This document shows positions 1 through 21,042 of a stretch of 64,000 nt of DNA, piece by piece. The position numbers were made by a program, and so were the translations under genes. Source of the DNA: Acidobacteria bacterium SCN 69-37 (GTDB lineage: Bacteria > Acidobacteriota > Vicinamibacteria > Vicinamibacterales > SCN-69-37). The notes under the pieces are model-generated. The model saw only the letters and a list, made by a program, of their open reading frames with translations, was not told the DNA's origin and ran no database searches. Location: contig MEDJ01000009.1 of assembly GCA_001724025.1 (NCBI GenBank), forward strand, positions 41,777-105,776, written 5' to 3'. How positions within the stretch are numbered: the stretch's first letter is position 1; the number at the start of each line of letters is the position of its first letter.

Positions 1-608
1 TCGAGGCTGACCTCGATGTAGTCGTCGGCCCGTCCCTGTTGGCGCAGCATGTTGCGGACCTGCAGACAGAAGTCGCCCTTCACCTCCAAGACGAGGCCGG
101 CGGCCTTACGGGCCGGGTCGGTCGCACGCGACCCGAGCACCTGCTCGACGTACGGATACATGCAGGCCGACGTCTTGCCCGAGCCGATGGCACCGACGAT
201 CAACATGCCGGTGTAGAGGCCGCGCTCCGGGATCACGAGCCACGTCGGTGCGCTGGCGCGGCCCGGTCGCGTCGCGTGATGCTGCTCGCCGAGGACCACG
301 AACAGATCCTCGCGATCCGCCACGGGGAGATACGGCGGCAACGGCCGGCGCGTGGGGGCCTGGTCCCACCGCGCGACGAAGATGTACACGAAGGAAAGCA
401 CGATACTCGACAGCACGAAGGGCGTGCTGAACCACAGCGCCGTGTAGGTGTACGCGACGCCGGCGAAGACGACCGGCCGGTGCACGTCGATCAGTCCGAG
501 GAGCGGATGTGTGCCAGGAAAGGGATAGGCCTGCACCCCCATCGTGCCCACGATCGCACTGCAGGCCAGACTCAGCAGGACCCGATGTGCCACCAACGCG
601 CGTATCAC
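1..608 (-). CDS. Type IV coupling protein (VirD4/TraG/TraD-like ATPase), N-terminal part only; the 3' end runs off the window
   Basis: My own minus-strand translation from GTG 606-608 gives hydrophobic N-terminal helices, then LVIPERGLYTGMLIVGAIGSGKTSACMYPY (Walker A). GTGA start/stop overlap with the upstream RHH gene. Absent from the ORF track because there is no in-window stop. Confidence 0.75.
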   Translation of the reverse strand, partial: MIRALVAHRVLLSLACSAIVGTMGVQAYPFPGTHPLLGLIDVHRPVVFAGVAYTYTALWFSTPFVLSSIVLSFVYIFVARWDQAPTRRPLPPYLPVADREDLFVVLGEQHHATRPGRASAPTWLVIPERGLYTGMLIVGAIGSGKTSACMYPYVEQVLGSRATDPARKAAGLVLEVKGDFCLQVRNMLRQQGRADDYIEVSL

Positions 609-886
609 TGCCCGTCTCCACCCGGGCGCGCCGACGAATTCCTCCGTGTCGAACCGGCTGATGCGTGCGTGACCGGCGCTGCGCTCTCAGCCGTGTGCTC
701 CGCGCGCCACGCCAGGAACTCGCGGTCTTTCGCGAGCGTGCTTTCAATGAGCTGATTCGTGACGTAGTCGGCGGTATCCCCGATGAACCGCGCATAGAGC
801 GCGAGCGTGTCGCGATTCGGTTCGAGCAGGCGGCAGATATGGCGCACGGTTCGGACACGGTTGGTGCGCGCTTTGATCAATGGCAT
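605..886 (-). CDS. Small CopG/ribbon-helix-helix-like DNA-binding protein (transfer accessory protein, tentative)
   Basis: 93-aa ORF (MPLIKARTNRVRTVRHICRLLEPNRDTLALYARFIG...). Its stop overlaps the coupling-protein start by 4 nt. This position is typical of RHH accessory genes next to T4CP genes. Confidence 0.55.
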   Translation of the reverse strand: MPLIKARTNRVRTVRHICRLLEPNRDTLALYARFIGDTADYVTNQLIESTLAKDREFLAWRAEHTAESAAPVTHASAGSTRRNSSARPGGDGQ

Positions 887-993
887 GACTCCTCTCCTCT
901 CTCCCCTCGGCGATCCGGCGTCGTCCTCACCGCGTGCCGCGACTCAGGCCTGCCTCGCGTCGTCTCGGCGGCACGCCTCGGATACGCGCATGG

Positions 994-1094
994 GCGGGCC
1001 AAGGGGGAGCGACCCCACCGGGTCGCGGCCAGCGCCGCGAGGCGACTGGGCGCGCGCGGGGGCTTCCGCAGGGGGTCGCTCCCCCTTGGCCCGC
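994..1094. repeat. Perfect 23-bp inverted repeat (994-1016 / 1072-1094, 55-nt spacer) followed by T6 (1098-1103); candidate oriT hairpin or plus-strand terminator
   Basis: GCGGGCCAAGGGGGAGCGACCCC and its exact reverse complement. It lies in the only large gap (887-1238) of the transfer operon. Imperfect direct repeats GCGAATCCG...GGGCCAGCGC occur at 1155-1206. Confidence 0.4.
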
Positions 1095-1238
1095 TGGTTT
1101 TTTGGATTTCACCTGCGTGCTGCGCGTCGTGCGCGACGCCCGCCTGCCACCGCGGCGAATCCGCGCGCGCGGGGCCAGCGCTCGCCGCGAATCCGGGGCC
1201 AGCGCCGGGGCCACCGACCGGCGGACGACGCTGGCCCC

Positions 1239-2240
1239 TCATGCGACCCCCGGCAGCGATCCGAACTGGCTGTAGTCGAACGGCAGCACGGCGGTGATCA
1301 ACCGGCCGGCGCTCCCACCCGAGCCGGAGGCGCTCGTCTGCAGGGCGGCCTCCCCACGGACCAGCCAGTCGCGGTAGAGCGCGTCGACATCGGCGGATTC
1401 GAGGCGCTGCCGTTCCCCGCGAAACCGATCGAGGTCGGCGACGGAGAGCCGCGCCCATTCGCCGTGCTCCACTGCGCGTCGGGTTGTGAAGTGCCAGCGG
1501 ATGTCGTCGATGCGGCTGCCCACGGTCGAGCGCGGACGGGCGAGGAACCGTTGAAGCGTGTCGTGGCACGTCGCCAGCGCCGTCGAGGTCTTCGGCGCCA
1601 CCGCGACCACGGTCCACACCGGCAGAGATCCCAGTAGAGCTGCGTGGTCGGCGAGAAAACGCTCCAGCGTCCGACCGAGCGCGTCAGTCACCAGCGCGAC
1701 GAACTGGACCACGGGCGGCTGACCCACCGCGGCGATGGGCCACCGATGCGGGAAGTAGCGGACGCCCGTCGTGCCGCCCGTGCGCGCCGCCGGACACACC
1801 TGCTGGGGCAGCGCGCTCGGCGCCATCCCGAGGTGTTCCACGAAGAACGCCACTTTGTCCGCGTCCGTGGCGAGCCACTCGGTGCCCGGCGTGGCGAGCA
1901 CGTGGTCGAGCACCATCAGCCGGCGGGCCACTCCCGCGGCGCTGACGCGCCGACGGTGACGGCTGGAGTCGAGGCCGATGAGGCGATAGAGCCGACGCTC
2001 GTGCAGGTGGTACACGTGGCCGCGGTCGGCGCGGCGGACAGAGCGCTCCGCCAGACGGCGCGCGACCAGGTCGTCGAGAAAGGCGCGGACGTTCTTGCCG
2101 TAGCGCACGCCCGCACTGACCTCGTATTGCCGCCGTAGACAGTAGCCGCTGTGCAGGGCGACGGTCGCGAGGAATCGCGCCTGTCGCGGCGAGAAGCCGA
2201 TCGGTTCGAGCGCCCGGGCGCGGTCCGCGAGCGTCGTCAC
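1239..2240 (-). CDS. Hypothetical winged-helix protein, replication-relaxation-family-like (tentative)
   Basis: 333-aa ORF with protein-like composition and a wHTH-like N-terminus (FSPRQARFLATVALHSGYCLRRQY...FLDDLVARRLAER...YHLHERRLYRLIG). ATGA overlap with the upstream gene. Confidence 0.6.
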   Translation of the reverse strand: MTTLADRARALEPIGFSPRQARFLATVALHSGYCLRRQYEVSAGVRYGKNVRAFLDDLVARRLAERSVRRADRGHVYHLHERRLYRLIGLDSSRHRRRVSAAGVARRLMVLDHVLATPGTEWLATDADKVAFFVEHLGMAPSALPQQVCPAARTGGTTGVRYFPHRWPIAAVGQPPVVQFVALVTDALGRTLERFLADHAALLGSLPVWTVVAVAPKTSTALATCHDTLQRFLARPRSTVGSRIDDIRWHFTTRRAVEHGEWARLSVADLDRFRGERQRLESADVDALYRDWLVRGEAALQTSASGSGGSAGRLITAVLPFDYSQFGSLPGVA

Positions 2241-3118
2241 AGCCGCTCCAGATGGTGCGGGTCGAACGGCGTCCCGCCGCGTCGCCCCGACCCACCGCGC
2301 GCGCGACTCGCGCCGGCCGCCCGATAGAGCGCGAAGCCGGCGGCGCTCTTCCCCGCCATTTGACCGCGCGAATAGTGCTCGGTGACCAGCTCGACATCAC
2401 GAGACTCGAGACGCCCCTCGGCCGATTCGTACTCGATGCGCAGGTCGGGAAGTTCCAGATGACCCTCGACGATCGGCAGGCCGGAGGCCGCCGCGAACGC
2501 GCGCATATCGTCCTCGTGGGTAACGTCCGCCGGCCGGTCCGCGCGATGAAGGAACCGTTGATAGTCGCGCTTCAACTCATAGTCGAGGACGACGCGGGAG
2601 ACGCGCCCGCCGTCGGCCTCGATGCAGGCGGCCTCGGCCTGGTAGAGGCGATAGATCTGCGCGTCGTGGGCGATTTCGCGCGGCTTCACCAGGCCGGCAT
2701 GAAACTCCTGACGGCGGCCGTCCCCGTCGGTGCGATGGGCCTCGAGCACGTCTTTCCCTTCGCGCGTCAGGACGACCACGGCGACCGACGCCCGATTCAC
2801 CTCGACGGTGCGGATCTGGACGAGGCCCTGCTCCGTCAGGGCGCGGAGGTCGCCTGTCCGCGCGTCGCGAGACGTGCGGACGGTTTGCACGTCGTCGGCG
2901 CGGACCACGCGAAACGTGCCGACGGTGGCGAGCGTGCGGGCCTCGGACTCCCGGAGGTGGAACACCTGGTCGCGCCCGCGCACCGGCTGCCGCTCGTGCC
3001 CACGGGGCAGCGACAGCCGGTCCATGGGAATGCCGGATGGGCGCCCCGACGGCGCCGTCCGATCGGGCCCGGGCTCCTGGCTCTCGCTGCGCGTGTCGGT
3101 GGTGTCGAAGCGGGACAT
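2237..3118 (-). CDS. Hypothetical winged-helix protein, replication-relaxation-family-like (tentative)
   Basis: 293-aa ORF with a wHTH-like segment (LRALTEQGLVQIRTVEVNRASVAVVVLTREGKDVLE) followed by EIAHDAQIYRLYQ. Tightly coupled to both neighbouring genes. Confidence 0.6.
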   Translation of the reverse strand: MSRFDTTDTRSESQEPGPDRTAPSGRPSGIPMDRLSLPRGHERQPVRGRDQVFHLRESEARTLATVGTFRVVRADDVQTVRTSRDARTGDLRALTEQGLVQIRTVEVNRASVAVVVLTREGKDVLEAHRTDGDGRRQEFHAGLVKPREIAHDAQIYRLYQAEAACIEADGGRVSRVVLDYELKRDYQRFLHRADRPADVTHEDDMRAFAAASGLPIVEGHLELPDLRIEYESAEGRLESRDVELVTEHYSRGQMAGKSAAGFALYRAAGASRARGGSGRRGGTPFDPHHLERL

Positions 3119-5123: not shown

Positions 5124-5912
5124 TCAGTACGGGCGCCAGCCGTCGAGGGCGGCGGCCGTGTTCCGAAACAGGTCCGCCCCGTAGTCGCGGCCGTATTGCC
5201 ACTGGTGCAACGTGGCGTTGAGGAGCGCGGCCTCGCTGTCGCGCTGCCGCCGATTGGCCACGAGCAGTTGCTCCAACGTGCTCATGAGGGACTGCTGCAT
5301 ATGGTCCTGCATGCGCAGTTGCAAGACCGCCGCCGCGTTGATCTTGTTGAGCACCGACGTCTGCGTCTGCAAGTCGTCGTTCGTCGAGGCTGCGTCGCGT
5401 TCCATGGTCGCGGCCACCAGGAGGTTCTTGGCGCCTTCCGTCCGCAGGCGCCCCATCTGATCTACGGCCAAGGCGGACGCGCTATCCGCGAGTTCAATCC
5501 CGGCGTACGCGTTCGCAACGCGGCGTTGCAGATTCGGCGGCATCCGCGCCACCGCTCCGGCCGGCACCTCAAGCGATTGGATCACTTGCCGGTAGGCACT
5601 GCCCGTCGCATCGCCGGTGTTGAGCGCGGCCAGAATCCGCTGGGCGTATTGCAGTCGGGCGTCGAGGGCGTGCACGGACCAATTGACGGAGTACCCGCGA
5701 TAGCGCGTGACCATGTCGAGCGGGAGCCGGCGCGCGTCGCGCGCCAGGATCCGCACCTGCTGGACCATCTGGATGAATTGGAGCAGCGCTTGATACCAGT
5801 TGGTGTCGTCGTAGACCAGATAGTCATAGGCCTGAGCGCGCGCCCGCACCGGGGCGGCGAGCATGACGGCCACCAGCAGCGCAGCGACGGGACGCAGTGC
5901 ACGACGGCTCAT
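5124..5912 (-). CDS. TrbJ/VirB5-like secreted helical T4SS protein
   Basis: ORF trimmed to ATG 5910-5912 (MSRRALRPVAALLVAVMLAAPVRARAQA...), giving 262 aa with a signal peptide and a Q/L/A-rich helical body. ATGA overlap with the virB10 stop, and GGAGG upstream. Confidence 0.65.
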   Translation of the reverse strand: MSRRALRPVAALLVAVMLAAPVRARAQAYDYLVYDDTNWYQALLQFIQMVQQVRILARDARRLPLDMVTRYRGYSVNWSVHALDARLQYAQRILAALNTGDATGSAYRQVIQSLEVPAGAVARMPPNLQRRVANAYAGIELADSASALAVDQMGRLRTEGAKNLLVAATMERDAASTNDDLQTQTSVLNKINAAAVLQLRMQDHMQQSLMSTLEQLLVANRRQRDSEAALLNATLHQWQYGRDYGADLFRNTAAALDGWRPY

Positions 5913-12217: not shown

Positions 12218-12544
12218 TCACGCCGACTCGGCCAGCGCGAGTTCGTAGTCGTTGTAGGCATCGATGATCGCATCGCGCAGCGCGTCCTGCGTGGCGGGGT
12301 CCGTGATTGGCCGCAGCAGCGCGAAGCTGCGGCGTTCGCCGTTGACCGAGTACTGCCGTGCCGGGAACGTCACGTTGCGGCCGCCGGCCTTGCGCTCCCA
12401 GACGGCGAAGCCGATCAGCTTGAGGCCGCCGAGCGGGCCGCCGGTGAAGTGGATCTCAGCGTCGGCGAGTTTGCCGGGAGGGTTGCCCTTGTCGTTCGGG
12501 AAGAACTTGACGGTCATCTGCGCGGGCGTTCTGGTCGTAGCCAT
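12218..12544 (-). CDS. SpoVG-like small nucleic-acid-binding protein (tentative), ICE gene
   Basis: ORF trimmed to ATG 12542-12544 (AAGGAG 9 nt upstream), giving 108 aa. The pattern KLADAEIHF…LGGLKLIGFAVWERKAGGRNVTFPARQYSVNGERRSFALLRPITDPATQDALRDAIIDAY resembles the SpoVG fold signature. Confidence 0.55.
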   Translation of the reverse strand: MATTRTPAQMTVKFFPNDKGNPPGKLADAEIHFTGGPLGGLKLIGFAVWERKAGGRNVTFPARQYSVNGERRSFALLRPITDPATQDALRDAIIDAYNDYELALAESA

Positions 12545-12551
12545 GTGTCTG

Positions 12552-12660
12552 TGCTCCTTCTGTGTGAGAACCGCGTCGTGCGGTTCCTTCGCAGCCAAAG
12601 GAACCCACTGATCGCGGTTACAGAAGGAGCAGGAGGACCGCCGGGGCGCGGCGAGGCGCC
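12552..12660 (-). promoter_or_regulatory. Structured 5' leader, copy 1 (upstream of the SpoVG-like gene): an anti-SD/SD helix enclosing a GGTTCCTT…AAGGAACC hairpin
   Basis: 12-nt perfect inverted repeat 12552-12563 / 12620-12631 that includes the AAGGAG SD. Inner hairpin 12582-12589 / 12598-12605. Conserved blocks GGAGGACC (12632-12639) and GCGAGGCGCC (12651-12660) are shared with copy 2. Confidence 0.45.
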
Positions 12661-13346
12661 GGACCCTATGGCGCGGACGTGACCAGCACGCATTCCCGCT
12701 GGCGCGGCTGTGCCGTCCGGCGCCGGTTCCGAAGGAACGCCACGCCCCGGTGGGACGGTTGGCGAAGACCGTGTGGCCGTCGCGATGACCACGAATTCGG
12801 ACGCTCAGGGTGGCCCGTCACACGTTCGCCGCTGGACACGCTCACTCGCCGGCACGCGGGGCAACGGCACGCGAGACGCATACAGGGCCGAGGTCGACGT
12901 GAGATCGGCTCGGGAATGAGCGGACAGAACGCCTCCGTCGTGCTGGCCGACGGACGACGCATGATGAACCTGGGGAGACGAACAAATGTTCCGACAACAA
13001 CGACGATGTGATTCGGTCAGCAGATCGGACGACCGGAGTCACGGGCGGGAATCGACGGGTAGGCGCGACTCAGCATTCACGCCTGTTTGGCGGCGGTACG
13101 CGGACATCCCGGCGGGCCTGGTCGCCACTGCGGCGTCAGTCAGGACCTAGCGGCTGGCCGCTGAGCCGCAGCCCGTCACCGATTCTAAGTCTCACGCCGT
13201 CGGTCGGACTGTCGAGCGCCCCCGGCCTCGCTGGCGCGATCGACACCGTTCGGACTAACCTATCCCGGCTAATCCGATTCTAGTTCCTAGAGGGCGCCTC
13301 CGAGTGGGCGTTCAGACCGTCGGACTGGCGTGCTCTGAGGGGCCGA

Positions 13347-14528
13347 ATGCCTTCCCGTTCACCAAACGCCGCAGCCCAGTCGAAGACTGACCATTCGGCC
13401 TCCGCCTCAGCCGCAGGCATCCTCTTTCAAGTGGAGCGCGCGTTGCTGCACTTGGCATCGGCTACCAGCGACACGGCCGTCGTCGGCGTCGAGACTCTCG
13501 ACGATGTCGTCGTGATGGAGGGAGACCGGCTCGCAATTCGCGAGCAAGACAAGCACTCAGTCGGGGCAGGCCGTTTGACCGAGCGCGATCCCAACTTGTG
13601 GAAGACGCTCGCAATTTGGCTTGACGACGGTCGAATAGCCGACCGATGTCTGTTGGCAACGAACAGGACTGTCTCGTCAGAATTCCTCAAAGAGCTAATG
13701 CGATCGCCGAGCGAGCGACAGCGCCCAGTGCCTCTTCTGAAGCGACTAGAGGCCATTGCGAAGCGTGGCTCATCTGAGGCCGGGATTCAGCAGACGATCG
13801 ACAGGGTGATGTCAGCGACTCGTTCTCAGTTGCGACAGCTAATAGGCAGCGTCCAGATCGTCTCTGTGAACACAGATGCCGGCACCGTCCGTGAAGACGT
13901 CTGCGTTCGCCTCGGCGTGCCAACGAGCGTGGACCGACACGCTCTGTTCCGCAATCTCATGGGCTGGATCGTGACCAGGTTACTTAGCGATTGGCGTGAA
14001 GCGAGACCTGCAAGAATCGCGCGGACAGAAGTTGTAAATCAGTGCAGAGCAATTGAGGCGGCAATCGCTAAGCAGCGCATCCTTCCACAACCTGCGGCTC
14101 AGGTGCTGGTGTCTGCCTCCGCAAGAGCTGCCGCTCGCACGAAACGCTTTACTCATCACCTCAGTCTTGTCGCCGCCGGTGACGACGACGTAGCGCAAGC
14201 CATCGACCATTTCATTCGATTCAACATCGAGAAACATCGTCTTACACGAGTCGGCGAGGTGCCCGAAGGCGAATGGACATCGCGAAGCGATCGCCTGCGT
14301 GAAAGGTGGTCGAATATTCTTCGGAAGCAGAGCCGAGACGTCGCGAAGAAGCGTGCGGCGCGAGTCGGTCTTGGCATACTTGAGGAGACGACCTATTTTC
14401 ACCGCGAGCCGCTCGACGGTAGTCCTTGCGATGAACTGTACATGACCGCTGGCCACTATCACCGTCTAGCGGATGACGATGCGGTGTGGTGGCACCCCCA
14501 CTTCCGCGTCCCGTCAAAGCGGAGATAG
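13347..14528 (+). CDS. lmuA: Lamassu/ABC-3C-type effector: N-terminal Cap4-like (DUF4297) PD-(D/E)xK nuclease domain plus a C-terminal ABC-3C-type helical domain
   Basis: 393 aa with GILFQ…VVGVETLDDVVVMEGDRLAIREQDKH (GxxFQ, E..DD, ExxK-type motifs). GAGGGG lies 4 nt upstream of the ATG. A 3-nt gap separates it from the next gene. AT-richer than the surrounding ICE. Confidence 0.7.
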   Translation: MPSRSPNAAAQSKTDHSASASAAGILFQVERALLHLASATSDTAVVGVETLDDVVVMEGDRLAIREQDKHSVGAGRLTERDPNLWKTLAIWLDDGRIADRCLLATNRTVSSEFLKELMRSPSERQRPVPLLKRLEAIAKRGSSEAGIQQTIDRVMSATRSQLRQLIGSVQIVSVNTDAGTVREDVCVRLGVPTSVDRHALFRNLMGWIVTRLLSDWREARPARIARTEVVNQCRAIEAAIAKQRILPQPAAQVLVSASARAAARTKRFTHHLSLVAAGDDDVAQAIDHFIRFNIEKHRLTRVGEVPEGEWTSRSDRLRERWSNILRKQSRDVAKKRAARVGLGILEETTYFHREPLDGSPCDELYMTAGHYHRLADDDAVWWHPHFRVPSKRR

Positions 14529-14531
14529 ACG

Positions 14532-15026
14532 ATGCAGCTAGATTTCGAAAACAAGATCGTGCGGAATCCTGTGCTTGGAGCGACTCTCATTTGGCGGTTC
14601 TGTTCTGAGTATGAGGCAGCGGCGTCCAGGAAGCGGCATGCCAGCCTCGCCGAGATTGTCCTCGCGTCTTCGCTGGTCGCCCACTCTCCAACAGTGGCTC
14701 GCCTGCATGGACTCCAATTCGACACGGGCCTTGCCCGAGCATTGGACGGTTACCCCGAGCTTCTTATCGACCTCCAAGCGCGCCTCCAGACCTCGACAGT
14801 GACGTGTCTTCGCGCGTTGGCAGTTGCTATCGCCGCAGGCCTTGTGGCTCGCACTGACCAGCAAGCTCCCGGCCAATTCGCCACCCGGCTCTCTGCTCTG
14901 CCTTCGGCCGTCGCGTCAGAGCACCCTTCCGTAGTGGACATGCACCACGCCATGAAACGAGTGGCAATCTGGATTGCTCGCGATGGCCTTACACCCGCGT
15001 GCCTGCGCCTCCAAGTGACGTTCTGA
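14532..15026 (+). CDS. lmuC: Small all-helical middle component of the three-gene module (LmuC / ABC-3C MC-like)
   Basis: 164-aa ORF sandwiched between the effector and ATPase genes. Its TGA shares one nt with the ATG of the ATPase gene (TGATG). Confidence 0.6.
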   Translation: MQLDFENKIVRNPVLGATLIWRFCSEYEAAASRKRHASLAEIVLASSLVAHSPTVARLHGLQFDTGLARALDGYPELLIDLQARLQTSTVTCLRALAVAIAAGLVARTDQQAPGQFATRLSALPSAVASEHPSVVDMHHAMKRVAIWIARDGLTPACLRLQVTF

Positions 15027-17071
15027 TGCATCTCCACATCCGACAGCTCATTCTGTGGCCACATCGTGCGGACCTGTCGCCGCGTGTGCTGAAGTTCCCT
15101 TCCCAGCGGATAGGTGTTGTGACCGGCTGGAGTAACACAGGCAAGTCAGCCGTTATCAGGATCATTGACTACGTGCTCGGGAGCAGCTCTTGCGCGATTC
15201 CGATTGGGCCTCTGCGGGAACTCGTCTCCTGGTACGGTCTCGATCTTGAAACTGACGACGGGCTATTGCGAGTCGCTCGCCAAAGACCCACCAGTCGTCA
15301 GGTAAGCGACGACTACATGGTGTTTCCCTTGATGGACGATGCCTCTCAAGGCGACATCCCGCCAGAACCTCGGAGAAACGCAACGACTGACGAATTTAAG
15401 GTTCGCATGAACCGTTTGGCCGGCCTCTCTGACCTTCGGCTCAGTCCAATTGATGATGCCGGCTGGAATCAGCGAGCATCTTTCCGCGACATGGCGTCGT
15501 TTACGCTTCAGCCGCAGCACATCGTAGCGAATCCTCACACTCTGTTCTTCAAGGCGGATTCATCTCGACATCGTGAAAAGCTCAAGCGAGTCATTCCCGT
15601 TGCCCTTGGCGTGCTAACCAACGATCACCTCGTGCTCCAGCACAGGGCAGAGTTGTTGCGAAACGAACTGCGCGACCTGGAAGCCCAGCAGCGACGTCGG
15701 CTCGCATCCTTGGAGACATGGCGTACCACTGCGACATCTCAGTATGTCCGGGCCCAGGAACTGGGCCTATTGGCGGCCAAAGAGCCGCCAGCTGAGGTGG
15801 GGGCAATCAACAGAGAGTTGTCTGCCCTTCTAACGAAAGCGCCTGAAGCTACCAGCGTCGGAAATCTGACCCGCGATGCGCTGACACGCCTGCAAGCTAC
15901 AAGAGACGGAGAGCTGCGATTGGACCGGCGAGTATCTGACCTGCGCCGAAAGCTCAAACGGCTGAGATCCATGAGCGCGAGCTTCACGCAATACGCGGAC
16001 GTCATCAGCGAGCAGCAGGCCATGGTTTCTGGTGTCGGTTGGTTTGCCCGACGCATAACAGGTGCGAACGAATGTCCTATTTGCGGCAGTGAGTCGACAA
16101 GCGCAAAGCAGGCGCTAGCCGAGTTGCGAGCGCCTCTAGCCGCCTTGGAAGATATCGCCGGGGCAGCCAGGCATGATCGCCCGATGGTCGATCGGGATGC
16201 TATAGCGACGGAACGGGCCTTGTATGAAGCGGAACGTCTACTGATGCAGCAGCGCCGTTTGCGGATTGAGCTTGAAACTGCGGTGCCCAAGGAGGGAGGC
16301 CAGCGCCTCGAAGACGTCTACCGGTTCCTCGGCAACGTCGAGCACGCCCTGCGAACGGCTAGCGAACCCGACGCAGGCCTGACAACGCGCATCGTCGATC
16401 TTACGATCGAGCTTCGCGGTGTGACATCAGACCTGAACGAGGGGGCAAGGCGCGAAGCCGAGAAGGAAGCTCTGAAACAGGTCGGCGAGTTAATAGCTGA
16501 CTATGCCAAAGCGTTCGGTGTCGAGGCCGTCGAGGGCCAACCCGTTCTTGACGTTCGAGAGCTTACGGTCCGTTTCGACCCCGAGCAAGAAGATCGAACG
16601 GCCTCGTTCCTGTGGGAGATTGGAAGTGGCGCGAACTGGATGGGTTACCACATCGCGACCCTTCTCGCGATTCACGACTACCTCTACAGACGCGTTCCGG
16701 CAAGCCCGGTACCGACGTTCCTAGTCATTGACCAGCCGAGTCAAGTGTTCTTTCCCAGCGACACATACGATCAGCTGCTCGGTCGTGGCGCCGAGGCCTC
16801 GCGCTCGACAGACGCCGCGGCGTCACCGAAACTTGATCGAGATCTGCAGCGAACGCGGCAAATTTTCGAAACCCTTGCTCGCGGCTTCAGGAGGCTCGGC
16901 GGACATTTGCAGATCGTAGTGCTAGAACACGCTGATCAGGCCGCTTGGGGACACTTGGAAGAATTTGAGCTTGTCGCCGACTGGCACAAATCGGACGACG
17001 CTCTCCTCCCACCGCCGTGGTTCGCGCCGCCAGATCCGGGAGAGACGACTACCCCTTCGACCACTCCATGA
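15026..17071 (+). CDS. lmuB: Rad50/SMC-like ABC ATPase (DUF3732-type; LmuB-like) with a mid-coiled-coil CxxC
   Basis: ORF trimmed to ATG 15026-15028 (MHLHIRQLILWP…). Walker A GWSNTGKS (15125-15148), a long heptad-like R/E/L-rich middle, ECPICGS at its centre (Cys codons 16073-16075 and 16082-16084), a signature-like WEIGSGANW, and Walker B FLVIDQPSQVFFP (from 16718). Confidence 0.8.
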   Translation: MHLHIRQLILWPHRADLSPRVLKFPSQRIGVVTGWSNTGKSAVIRIIDYVLGSSSCAIPIGPLRELVSWYGLDLETDDGLLRVARQRPTSRQVSDDYMVFPLMDDASQGDIPPEPRRNATTDEFKVRMNRLAGLSDLRLSPIDDAGWNQRASFRDMASFTLQPQHIVANPHTLFFKADSSRHREKLKRVIPVALGVLTNDHLVLQHRAELLRNELRDLEAQQRRRLASLETWRTTATSQYVRAQELGLLAAKEPPAEVGAINRELSALLTKAPEATSVGNLTRDALTRLQATRDGELRLDRRVSDLRRKLKRLRSMSASFTQYADVISEQQAMVSGVGWFARRITGANECPICGSESTSAKQALAELRAPLAALEDIAGAARHDRPMVDRDAIATERALYEAERLLMQQRRLRIELETAVPKEGGQRLEDVYRFLGNVEHALRTASEPDAGLTTRIVDLTIELRGVTSDLNEGARREAEKEALKQVGELIADYAKAFGVEAVEGQPVLDVRELTVRFDPEQEDRTASFLWEIGSGANWMGYHIATLLAIHDYLYRRVPASPVPTFLVIDQPSQVFFPSDTYDQLLGRGAEASRSTDAAASPKLDRDLQRTRQIFETLARGFRRLGGHLQIVVLEHADQAAWGHLEEFELVADWHKSDDALLPPPWFAPPDPGETTTPSTTP

Positions 17072-17228
17072 GTGGTGCGAAGACCTGCCGCCTCAGGACT
17101 CGGCCTGGCAATTGGGCCTCGATCTATGCCGATACAACAGCGACTCAAGAAGAGCTTGTCGGGATCGGAGATGTCGCGTGCAGGCTCGGGCGTGTCGTCA
17201 ACTTGGATCCTCTGACCGACGGGCGCCA

Positions 17229-18017
17229 TCACCCGATCGGCTCGACCGCGCCGAGAATGGTCGCGGCCGCGCGTCGGATTCGATCAAGCGATGAGGCGAG
17301 CGCCTCTCGGTCACCTCGATAGAGGTGGATGTAGTCGCGCGAGGACTGCGACACGTCCAGGCCGACGGCATCACCGACGACGAACGCGACCGCCTCGGCC
17401 TCGAGTTCACGCGTGTCACGGGATGCGGGGCGGTCCGCCGATCGGTGCAGCAACTCGTGCGCGAACTCGTGGACCAGGACGACGAACTCCTCCGCTGGTG
17501 CGAGTCCCGTGAGGAGTTGGATGCGGCCACCGGTGGACGTGCCCAGCGCTCCGCCGAGGTCATCAGACGCCTTGATGGCGATGGCGTGCGAGAGGATCGC
17601 ATCCCGCAGCTGCGCCGTACGCACACCCGGGTCACCGGTCGCCATCGAAGGCTCGGGCAGCGGGTCGCCATCAGTCTGGGTCACATCAAACACGTGCGCG
17701 GCACGAAATCCGGCGACGTGCTTCGCATCGTCGTCGCAGGCGTCGACTCTCCTACGGACGATGGGGGCCAGAATCCCGATGCCCTTCTCGCCCTTCCGCA
17801 CACACCGCCCCAGAGCGCGCCAGGTGTGGAACCCAGCGACGCGCGTGGCGGTCGGGCACTGGCTGGTGATGAGGCAGATGTTGTTGAAGCTGTAGTGGTG
17901 AAAGCGGCCCATAGTCTTGAGCAGCGCGGTGAGCTGGTCGCTGTGTCCGGTATCGAGCAGAGCGGCGAGTCGGTCGAGGGCGTCGGTCGTGAGTTGCTTG
18001 AGATCGTCGGCGTTCAT
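17229..18017 (-). CDS. ardC: ArdC-like anti-restriction protein (ssDNA-binding N-domain plus metalloprotease domain)
   Basis: ORF trimmed to ATG 18015-18017 (GGAGGAC upstream), giving 262 aa with HHYSFNNICLI…GFHTWRALGRCVRKGEKGI and the HExxH motif VHEFAHELLH. Confidence 0.8.
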   Translation of the reverse strand: MNADDLKQLTTDALDRLAALLDTGHSDQLTALLKTMGRFHHYSFNNICLITSQCPTATRVAGFHTWRALGRCVRKGEKGIGILAPIVRRRVDACDDDAKHVAGFRAAHVFDVTQTDGDPLPEPSMATGDPGVRTAQLRDAILSHAIAIKASDDLGGALGTSTGGRIQLLTGLAPAEEFVVLVHEFAHELLHRSADRPASRDTRELEAEAVAFVVGDAVGLDVSQSSRDYIHLYRGDREALASSLDRIRRAAATILGAVEPIG

Positions 18018-18105: not shown

Positions 18106-18280
18106 ACCCGGCGAGTGCCTCCTCACCGGGCGTGACGGCCGCGGTCAGACGGCACGAAGCGCAGCGGCCGGTGAGTACGCGCCGGGATCTATTGCCGCCG
18201 AGCGCCACGCCGATGCAGCAGCGACGACGCGCCATGAAGCGCGACGTTCGCCGGTCAAGTGCCCTGATGGGCGATCCCGA

Positions 18281-18500
18281 TCACCGCAGCAGGCCCGCCT
18301 CCCGGAAGCTCACCCAGCGCCCATCACCGATGGCGAGGTGGTCCGCCACGTCCGCGCCGGAGATTCGGTCGGCGTTGAGGCGGCGTTGCGTCAGGATGAC
18401 GTCGTCTCGGCTCGGGGGGCCGTACCGACAGCTGGGGCGATTTCAACCGTGCAATCGAAAACAGGTGCGCCCACCACTGCGCCCACCATTCGCGAGACAT
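18281..18500 (-). pseudogene. Possible small ORF interrupted by a frameshift at a homopolymer (G6 on the plus strand, 18414-18419)
   Basis: Minus strand: ATG 18498-18500 gives MSREWWAQWWAHLFSIARLKSPQLSVR…. The +1 frame then continues with protein-like SRDDVILTQRRLNADRISGADVADHLAIGDGRWVSFREAGLLR and a stop at 18281-18283. One C fewer would fuse them into 72 aa. Confidence 0.25.
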
Positions 18501-19153
18501 GGTGAGATTTACTGAGCATTTCTGCGATTTCTAGAGACAGCGCGACGACGTCAGGAATCGCCTTTCCTCAATAAAGACGGACCTGAACGTGCGTTTTCCA
18601 GAATATCCTCGATATTCTTGAAGACGACGTTCTATGCCAAGGTTTTCGCACACCGCGAGCACCTCACGCTGTCGAAGAATCAGAACAGGTCGAGTGCCCT
18701 CTCGCAGAGGCAATTGACACGCGCACTTCGCCGGCGTAGCCTTGGCGCATACCGTCCTTGGCGCTGCGCGCCTTCCCCTCCACCGGTCTCAGGCCGGTGA
18801 AGGCAGCCACTTTCCCGTCCTCCAACCGATCCGGGAACAGGCTCTAAACATCTGAATAGCGAATCCCTCGGCGCATCCGTCCCGCTGGGCACGAGAGTCC
18901 CCATCAGGGCACCAGCCAACCGGAACGCCAGTGTTTCAGATGGTCACGATCGCAACGTCATCGGCACCTTACGGCGGGCTCCGCGCCCTGCGACGGTCCT
19001 GCCGAGTTCGCGGGCAATGCCGTGCTGACCCAACACACATTGGCCCGTCGCTCGCCGCTCTACTCCTCACCGGACGACTTCGGCCAACAGGCCGTGCGGC
19101 ACGCCCCAGATCGTACCCAATGTTCGCCGTTCCAGCTCTTCTGTGGGGGTATC

Positions 19154-19362
19154 ATGCGAGGACGGAAGCACACTCGTTCCCAGGAACCGACGCGCGGACG
19201 CCATGCGTTCGAACGTGGCCGACGCGTATCGGCCGAGACCGATGCTCAGGTCGACGAATCCTTCCGTGCGCTCGCGCGATTGCTCGGGCGACAAGCTGCG
19301 CGTGAAGTGTTCAACCGCGCCATGACCCGAGCAGTCGACCGATCAGCCGAAGAGGGTCACCA

Positions 19363-19366
<4 letters not shown>
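19154..19366 (+). CDS. Small basic protein translationally coupled to the recombinase (possible directionality or accessory factor; speculative)
   Basis: 70 aa from ATG 19154 (MRGRKHTRSQ…FRALARLLGRQAAREVFNRAMTRAVDRS…). Its TGA overlaps the recombinase ATG (ATGA at 19363-19366). Confidence 0.35.

Positions 19367-21042
<1,676 letters not shown>

Follow-up and report, generated by a model that had tools for sequence, protein, structure and literature searches.

A three-gene operon, lmuACB, lies on the plus strand of Acidobacteria bacterium SCN 69-37 (GenBank assembly GCA_001724025.1, contig MEDJ01000009.1, positions 41,777 to 105,776; the window, 64,000 nucleotides). Together with its surroundings, the operon very probably represents a complete and apparently functional type II ('short') Lamassu system of the class that combines a Cap4 nuclease, CTD7, MC3 and a zinc-hook LmuB, carried as horizontally acquired cargo by an element of about 26 kb that encodes a type IV secretion system (T4SS). 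The family membership of the three proteins, the conservation of the motifs tested by mutation in the Salmonella enterica homologue and the cargo nature of the locus were established directly. The genes of the operon and their main motifs, with positions in the window, are:

13347-14528, plus strand: lmuA, open reading frame (ORF) of 393 aa
13491-13553, plus strand: nuclease active-site motif of LmuA, E49-x2-D52-D53 ... E66-Q67-D68-K69
14148-14507, plus strand: CTD7 domain of LmuA, residues 268-387 (Pfam PF20283, E=4.1e-10, 40.4 bits, cut-off 27.6)
14532-15026, plus strand: lmuC, ORF of 164 aa
15026-17071, plus strand: lmuB, ORF of 681 aa counted from the ATG
15125-15148, plus strand: Walker A motif of LmuB, GWSNTGKS, residues 34-41, fitting Gx4GK[S/T]
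16073-16084, plus strand: predicted zinc-hook motif of LmuB, CPIC, C350-C353, at the coiled-coil apex
16622-16636, plus strand: signature (head-engagement) motif of LmuB, GSGAN, residues 533-537
16718-16735, plus strand: variant Walker B motif of LmuB, FLVIDQ (within FLVIDQPS), residues 565-570, following the short-Lamassu consensus

The three proteins and their family

An earlier reading of the sequence alone had proposed a Lamassu or ABC-3C module, and profile searches agree with it. CTD7, MC3 and DUF3732 were each found above the Pfam gathering cut-off, and the PADLOC models for LmuA and LmuB were matched at 2.7e-38 and 1.7e-93, respectively. A search of the three proteins against NCBIfam gave nothing useful.

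Sequence and model support the lmuB product as an SMC/Rad50-like ABC ATPase sensor. It matches DUF3732 (now LmuB_C), the family that the sequence-only reading had named, at 8.5e-41, and among PDB sequences it matches S. enterica 9hqu_A (6.9e-96, residues 1-666) and the Vibrio cholerae-type chain 9ny5_D (1.6e-81). When its AlphaFold2 model (predicted local distance difference test, pLDDT, 82) was submitted to Foldseek, Lamassu LmuB ranked first (2.9e-37), then type I LmuB (1.3e-10), with Rad50, SMC, MukB and JetC at lower ranks (1e-9 and weaker). The Walker A, signature and Walker B motifs lie where they had been placed from the sequence. In a set of 43 homologues, G34, G39, K40, S41, G533, G535, N537, D569, Q570, H635, C350 and C353 are invariant and S534 is kept in at least 90%. 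K40 aligns with K40 of S. enterica LmuB, where the K40I mutant has lost ATPase activity, and S534 with S536, where S536R abolishes phage defence; the published Walker B consensus of short Lamassu is hhhhD[Q/S/T/E].

The CPIC motif is the sole CxxC in LmuB (350-353 of 681), and its counterpart in the alignment with S. enterica LmuB is the CPMC zinc hook. In the model it sits in an apex loop (348-357) between two long, antiparallel helices (280-347 and 358-418); breaks in the helices, at 246-257, 272-279 and 419-427, fall close to FP1, the folding point published for S. enterica LmuB (266-276 and 416-432). Alignment and model thus both support the earlier suggestion that this mid-protein CxxC is a predicted zinc hook of the Rad50 kind.

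Sequence and model likewise support the lmuA product as the effector. A Cap4-like PD-(D/E)xK nuclease domain at its N-terminus is followed by a helical middle and, at the C-terminus, by CTD7 as the domain for oligomerisation and docking; all but two of the 75 LmuA homologues listed carry CTD7 too. Among PDB sequences LmuA matches the S. enterica LmuA chain 9hqu_C (4e-16, residues 18-391) and a V. cholerae-type Lamassu chain (4.3e-9). Foldseek aligned its AlphaFold2 model (pLDDT 91) to LmuA structures at 1.6e-19 and, outside Lamassu, to the Avs3 nuclease, Cap4 (6VM5, 6WAN, 7YIB) and HerA-DUF4297 at 5e-5 to 1e-3 with probability 1.0, the value for Cap4 being about 2e-4. The motifs GILFQ (24-28), ETLDD (49-53) and REQDK (65-69) were confirmed in position, and E49, D52, D53, E66, Q67 and K69 are invariant in the alignment of 41 homologues. 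In the alignment K69 falls on the lysine whose change to alanine gives the S. enterica LmuA(KA) chain 9hqx_A; this change is reported as K68A, the catalytically dead mutant. By this alignment the lysine motif appears better read as QxK (Q67-D68-K69; QSK in S. enterica) than as the REQDK pattern first given.

LmuC belongs to the ABC-3C middle components of type MC3 (Pfam PF20131, 1.5e-12, 47.7 bits, cut-off 23.2); it matches S. enterica LmuC (9hqu_D) among PDB sequences at E=0.0024 and is 35% identical to the LmuC of the nearest related operon (locus L059). The closest homologues of LmuA and LmuB are 46% and 51% identical, respectively, and the named close homologues of both are largely alphaproteobacterial.

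The genes are packed as had been described from the sequence. The junction between lmuA and lmuC reads TAG-acg-ATG, with a gap of 3 nt, and that between lmuC and lmuB reads ttcTGATGcat, with an overlap of 1 nt, through which lmuB is, as far as the junction can be read, translationally coupled to lmuC. An alternative GTG start of lmuB at 14999 would give a protein of 690 aa.

A variable cargo slot beside ardC

The operon is cargo swapped into a variable slot of the element. The slot and its bounds comprise the following features:

12218-12544, minus strand: p108, conserved backbone gene of 108 aa, left bound of the slot, adjoining ardC in relatives
12610-13346, no strand: upstream stretch of the variable segment, unique to this element, with no gene called between p108 and lmuA
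17072-17235, no strand: convergent lmuB/ardC spacer, downstream end of the variable segment (similarity to relatives resumes at 17236-17242)
17229-18017, minus strand: ardC-like gene, right bound of the slot, with ArdC_N (Pfam ArdcN 1.5e-9) and an HExxH/M78-like domain

Related elements resemble the window at the DNA level up to 12609 and again from 17236, which delimits a variable segment (12610-17235) of 4.6 kb consisting of the operon and 740 bp of unique upstream DNA. In five related loci (L007, L016, L017, L049 and L057) the slot is empty, and ardC and p108 are neighbours at a distance of about 480-900 bp. L005 has genes for a GmrSD_N protein, a TPR-CHAT protein and an S41/PDZ peptidase in this slot, while TPR-CHAT, an Mrr_cat-nSTAND3 NTPase, an SNF2-NOV_C helicase and other genes surround ardC in L004 and L006. 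The composition of the operon is foreign as well. GC content is 0.59-0.61 in lmuA, lmuC and lmuB versus 0.63-0.69 in virB4, ardC, the crp-like gene, p108 and the recombinase gene, and GC content at third codon positions (GC3) is 0.63-0.64 versus 0.79-0.87 in the same two sets; in a 200-nt profile GC falls to 0.55-0.60 from about 13500 to about 17000. The higher AT content and the separate acquisition that the sequence-only reading had suggested are both upheld, the latter by foreign GC3, the five empty slots and the break in homology at 12609/17236.

On either side of the slot the backbone is conserved: p108, which has no Pfam or NCBIfam match, stands beside ardC in Vicinamibacterales elements at 63-79% identity, and relatives of ArdC that are 64-75% identical were found in Vicinamibacterales metagenome-assembled genomes (MAGs). 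A search for insertion-scar repeats around the cargo returned short chance-level matches only. Variable cargo slots in backbones of integrative and conjugative elements (ICEs) and islands are known to hold Lamassu among alternatives, as in GI-Hotspot 8 of Pseudomonas PAGI-2/3 / LESGI-3 (n=475; PMC12629846). The two cases are alike in having a variable slot with alternative defence systems in a conserved backbone; the present one is set apart by its backbone, that of an undescribed acidobacterial/planctomycete family of T4SS elements, and by the position of the slot next to ardC.

Conflict-type genes around ardC were seen in the close relatives L004 (5985-16075), L005 (10832-17503) and L006 (14646-18707); the TPR-CHAT proteases are 838-939 aa long, and the order TPR-CHAT then S41 peptidase recurs in L005 and L006. 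A more distant locus of a Planctomyces sp. MAG (L036 3992-10855) carries an N6/N4 DNA methylase gene and a complete Lamassu (CTD7/MC3/LmuB_C) directly upstream of its ardC homologue. The latter is distant (47% identity). Lamassu and ardC are neighbours here for a second time, independently and in another phylum; this Lamassu is matched by the PADLOC models for LmuA and LmuB that also match the operon in the window, and its MC3 scores 7e-35. A specific linkage of ardC and Lamassu was considered and rejected, since Lamassu occurs in only two of the 56 ardC loci and most of the others have different cargo or none, which suggests a shared cargo hotspot and no specific pairing.

The nearest related operon, in L059, has the order CTD7-MC3-LmuB_C and lies beside a resolvase gene, a CHAT protein gene and another SMC-like gene. 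The last of these is a second SMC_N/AAA_23 ATPase gene with small neighbouring ORFs directly after lmuB (L059 9382-11475), which suggests another SMC-like system stacked on Lamassu.

The unique stretch 12610-13346 presumably holds the promoter or regulatory region of lmuA. Within it, three direct repeats with the core TCGGACT (GT[T]CGGACT[G/A]) were noted on the plus strand at 13204, 13250 and 13320, within 117 nt and 20-145 nt upstream of the lmuA start. The 7-mer TCGGACT occurs in 13 copies on both strands of the 64-kb window, three of them in this cluster, and judged by position the repeats could be candidate operator sites; the motif is not conserved upstream of lmuA in the related operons L059 and L036. 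An Rfam scan of the whole window returned only tRNA, with no known RNA element in 12610-13346 or in 18175-19362, and a scan of 12500-17400 found no terminator-like hairpin between lmuB and ardC.

Mechanism, solved relatives and role

The mechanism proposed for this operon follows by homology from the solved S. enterica and V. cholerae systems. Three structural studies agree that an LmuB dimer and LmuC sequester one LmuA monomer via its C-terminal domain. The complex senses dsDNA ends and, in vivo, phage replication origins; a part has also been ascribed to palindromic or hairpin DNA. ATP-dependent head engagement then releases LmuA, which forms a tetramer with paired Cap4 domains and cuts DNA non-specifically, leading to abortive infection or plasmid loss. 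Mutation of the S. enterica system has shown four features to be necessary for defence: the zinc hook, Walker A, the lysine of the nuclease and the serine of the signature motif. All catalytic and structural motifs tested by mutation in that homologue are conserved in LmuA and LmuB here, and because every residue class behind the published model is present, the same mechanism is assigned.

In the resting complex, the CTD7 of a single LmuA monomer would be gripped by one LmuC and by two LmuB subunits, joined at the CxxC zinc hook and with folded coiled coils, so that the nuclease would stay inactive. The LmuB heads would bind dsDNA ends or hairpin-type structures arising from replicating phages or plasmids, and ATP-dependent head engagement, involving Walker A K40, signature S534 and a presumably slow DQ Walker B, would open the complex and free LmuA. 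Freed LmuA may then tetramerise via its C-terminal domain, so that paired Cap4-like domains form the active site (D52/D53, Q67, K69) and cut DNA without sequence specificity. The expected outcome would be abortive infection or the loss of plasmid-bearing cells, while the integrated element, replicated as chromosome, would give no such trigger.

The closest described counterpart is S. enterica LmuACB (PDB 9HQU, 9HQX, 9HR5; Li et al., bioRxiv 10.1101/2025.03.14.643221), with which the gene order A-C-B, a Cap4-like N-terminal domain and CTD7 in LmuA and an MC3-type LmuC are shared. The LmuB proteins have in common a length of about 660-680 aa, one CPxC zinc hook, a DQ Walker B and a GSGxN signature; K68, K40, S536 and the hook of S. 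enterica correspond to K69, K40, S534 and C350+C353 here. The differences are the distant sequences, the host, which is a high-GC acidobacterium and not an enterobacterium, and the carriage on a T4SS element. V. cholerae DdmABC / Lamassu Vc-Cap4 (PDB 9NXX, 9NY5, 9UXL; PMC12663957; bioRxiv 10.1101/2025.06.23.660979) belongs to the same type II short family, has a Cap4-type LmuA and also lies on a mobile genomic island, VSP-II, but its LmuB has lost the zinc hook (no CxxC in the aligned stretch), whereas the LmuB described here keeps it. The hook has been mapped in short Lamassu as present in 0, 1 or 2 copies by clade, and its requirement has been tested in published work.

More distant comparisons delimit the class further. 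Type I Lamassu (Bacillus LmuAB; PDB 9UX7) shares the SMC-like LmuB sensor and the sequestered LmuA, but consists of two genes, has no LmuC and is much more distant in sequence. CBASS Cap4 (6VM5, 6WAN, 7YIB) and HerA-DUF4297 share the PD-(D/E)xK fold with LmuA over about 235 aligned columns and, like LmuA, are activated by oligomerisation; unlike CBASS Cap4, LmuA has no SAVED/CARF sensor and no part in cyclic-nucleotide signalling. A CBASS module was considered for the locus and rejected, there being no SAVED/CARF domain on LmuA and no CD-NTase among the called genes around the operon. Rad50-Mre11 and SbcCD, the latter type of complex being the proposed evolutionary source of Lamassu, resemble LmuB in their ABC head, antiparallel coiled coil and CxxC zinc hook. 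The present module, by contrast, lacks an Mre11/SbcD nuclease, and its LmuB has a folded, much shorter coiled coil and a DQ Walker B; the Lamassu effector is sequestered and released, whereas the Rad50-Mre11 or SbcCD nuclease acts on the bound end.

The module had been called uncharacterised in the sequence-only reading, which does not hold. The same architecture (Cap4-CTD7, MC3 and zinc-hook LmuB) has solved structures, its hook has been shown to be required and Lamassu on ICEs has been published; architecture, hook, activation mechanism, carriage on ICEs or islands and the likely cause of ICE tolerance are all in the literature already. The question of how the element avoids targeting itself has a published suggested answer too, since ICEs are proposed to escape DdmABC because they are replicated with the chromosome.

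The operon could be a true Lamassu selected for the element, as a weapon against competing plasmids and mobile elements or for an addiction-like stabilisation of the ICE, with phage defence secondary. We regard this as a minor possibility. It draws on the elimination of plasmids by V. cholerae DdmABC, to which ICEs are proposed to be invisible, on the location of the operon on a conjugative element beside ardC, where relatives keep other conflict genes, and on the complete Lamassu next to ardC on a second, distant element (L036, Planctomyces). Against it, the same systems also give phage protection by abortive infection, so that the two roles are not exclusive, the frequency of Lamassu among the ardC loci speaks for no specific linkage, and the sequence holds nothing that separates the two roles. 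A stronger version, in which the element uses Lamassu as an inter-element weapon and has a dedicated means of self-avoidance during excision, rolling-circle transfer and establishment, for example via ArdC or another leading-region product, appears very improbable. If it were true, Lamassu beside ardC in two phyla would be a functional pairing and not a shared cargo hotspot.

The host element and the weight of the evidence

The genes around the slot describe an apparently ICE-like element of about 26 kb. To the left of the operon are p108, a gene for a Crp-like regulator and the genes for TrbC/VirB2, VirB3, VirB4, CagX/VirB9, TrbI/VirB10, TrbL/VirB6 and VirB8; beyond the start of the window follow a TraG-type coupling protein (TraG-D_C), VirB11 (T2SSE), a tyrosine integrase of 597 aa and then a TonB-receptor-like chromosomal gene. 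To the right are ardC, about 1.3 kb without a called gene, a large serine recombinase and then chromosomal genes. Recombinases thus stand at both ends beside chromosomal genes, the tyrosine integrase on the left and the serine recombinase on the right. The features of the right end are:

19363-21009, plus strand: large serine recombinase (CcrB/XisF-like), 548 aa, 3' end overlapping tRNA-Met
20966-21042, minus strand: tRNA-Met (Rfam), inside which the recombinase ORF ends

The minus strand carries all T4SS genes, the crp-like gene, p108 and ardC as well as the genes for the type IV coupling protein (T4CP), VirB11 and the tyrosine integrase. The earlier statement that the operon runs opposite to every other gene of the element is therefore right for these genes, but fails for the serine recombinase (19363-21009), which is on the plus strand. 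As the recombinase ORF ends inside the tRNA gene, the junction of the element seems to lie within tRNA-Met. An LmuB protein identical to the one described is on record for Acidobacteria bacterium SCN 69-37, and the contig is also present in bioreactor metagenome assemblies.

Two side observations concern the unassigned parts of the element. About 1.2 kb between ardC and the recombinase (18175-19362) has no called gene and is not conserved in ardC relatives; it is a candidate for an origin of transfer (oriT), a remnant of an attachment (att) site or a regulatory region. Element ORFs of 333, 293, 262, 98, 93 and 78 aa are without a family (locus L003 10001-12514, equal to window 605-3118; window 5124-5912; L003 15703-15939).

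Several results weigh against a complete and functional Lamassu on a mobile element. Pfam Cap4_nuclease (DUF4297, PF14130) had no match in LmuA at E<=1 and is annotated in none of the 75 listed homologues, so that the proposed Cap4/DUF4297 type of gene 1 holds for fold (Foldseek) and active site only and not for the Pfam profile. The best PADLOC LmuC model gave a weak score (0.017), which makes LmuC a divergent member. Foldseek identity to the solved systems, 20% for LmuA and 27-28% for LmuB, is so low that trigger and stoichiometry may deviate in detail. Upstream of lmuA, the scan of 12500-17400 showed no promoter-like site; it was limited to a sigma-70-type consensus and gave promoter and terminator counts near the shuffle expectation. 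As to the element, Pfam and NCBIfam searches found no relaxase among its unassigned ORFs, and the tRNA-Met region shares no word of 12 or more nucleotides with the 7.7 kb to the left of the window; with no recognisable relaxase and no att repeats, the element can be called only putatively mobile at present.

From these last results it might be argued that the locus is a chromosomal defence island on a decayed, immobile remnant of a conjugative element. Besides the missing relaxase and the tRNA-Met 3' half without a direct repeat at the far end, it could be added that none of the 55 related loci has a relative of the serine recombinase within 10 kb of its ardC gene. We regard this as unlikely. 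The full T4SS gene set and the genes for T4CP and VirB11 are intact with host-like GC3, recombinases remain at both ends beside chromosomal genes and a tRNA, and related elements across several phyla imply transfer. Serine recombinases need very short cores only, and the ORFs without a family could include a divergent relaxase.

That the operon itself is an inactive relic, no longer expressed or functional in its host, is very unlikely. A GC3 of 0.63 versus about 0.8 suggests codon usage unlike that of the neighbouring element genes, the promoter scan upstream of lmuA was negative and over-expressed Lamassu is toxic according to published work, which could select for silencing; yet the three frames are intact with coupled start and stop signals, every invariant catalytic and structural residue of the family is kept and the identical protein is found on several independent assemblies. 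A housekeeping DNA-repair complex of the Rad50/SbcC type, which the Rad50/SMC fold, the CxxC hook and the proposed descent of Lamassu from SbcCD might bring to mind, can be dismissed almost entirely, as the module has no Mre11/SbcD phosphoesterase partner but a Cap4-like nuclease with CTD7 and an MC3 protein, its Walker B is DQ and not DE, its coiled coil is short, Lamassu LmuB is the best match by at least 60 orders of magnitude and the genes are cargo of foreign composition on a mobile element.

The operon, read as a short Lamassu carried by a conjugative element, adds an intact zinc-hook system with a Cap4-type effector from Acidobacteriota (Vicinamibacterales), a phylum in which defence biology has hardly been studied by experiment. 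Because it is distant in sequence from the solved systems and nevertheless keeps every tested residue, it is useful as a catalogue entry and as a comparator. It opens no new mechanism. The operon is of value as a divergent member of a known Lamassu class and as a pointer to the cargo region of an undescribed T4SS element family, common to Acidobacteriota, Planctomycetota and other phyla, in which the region next to ardC is variable and rich in defence genes.

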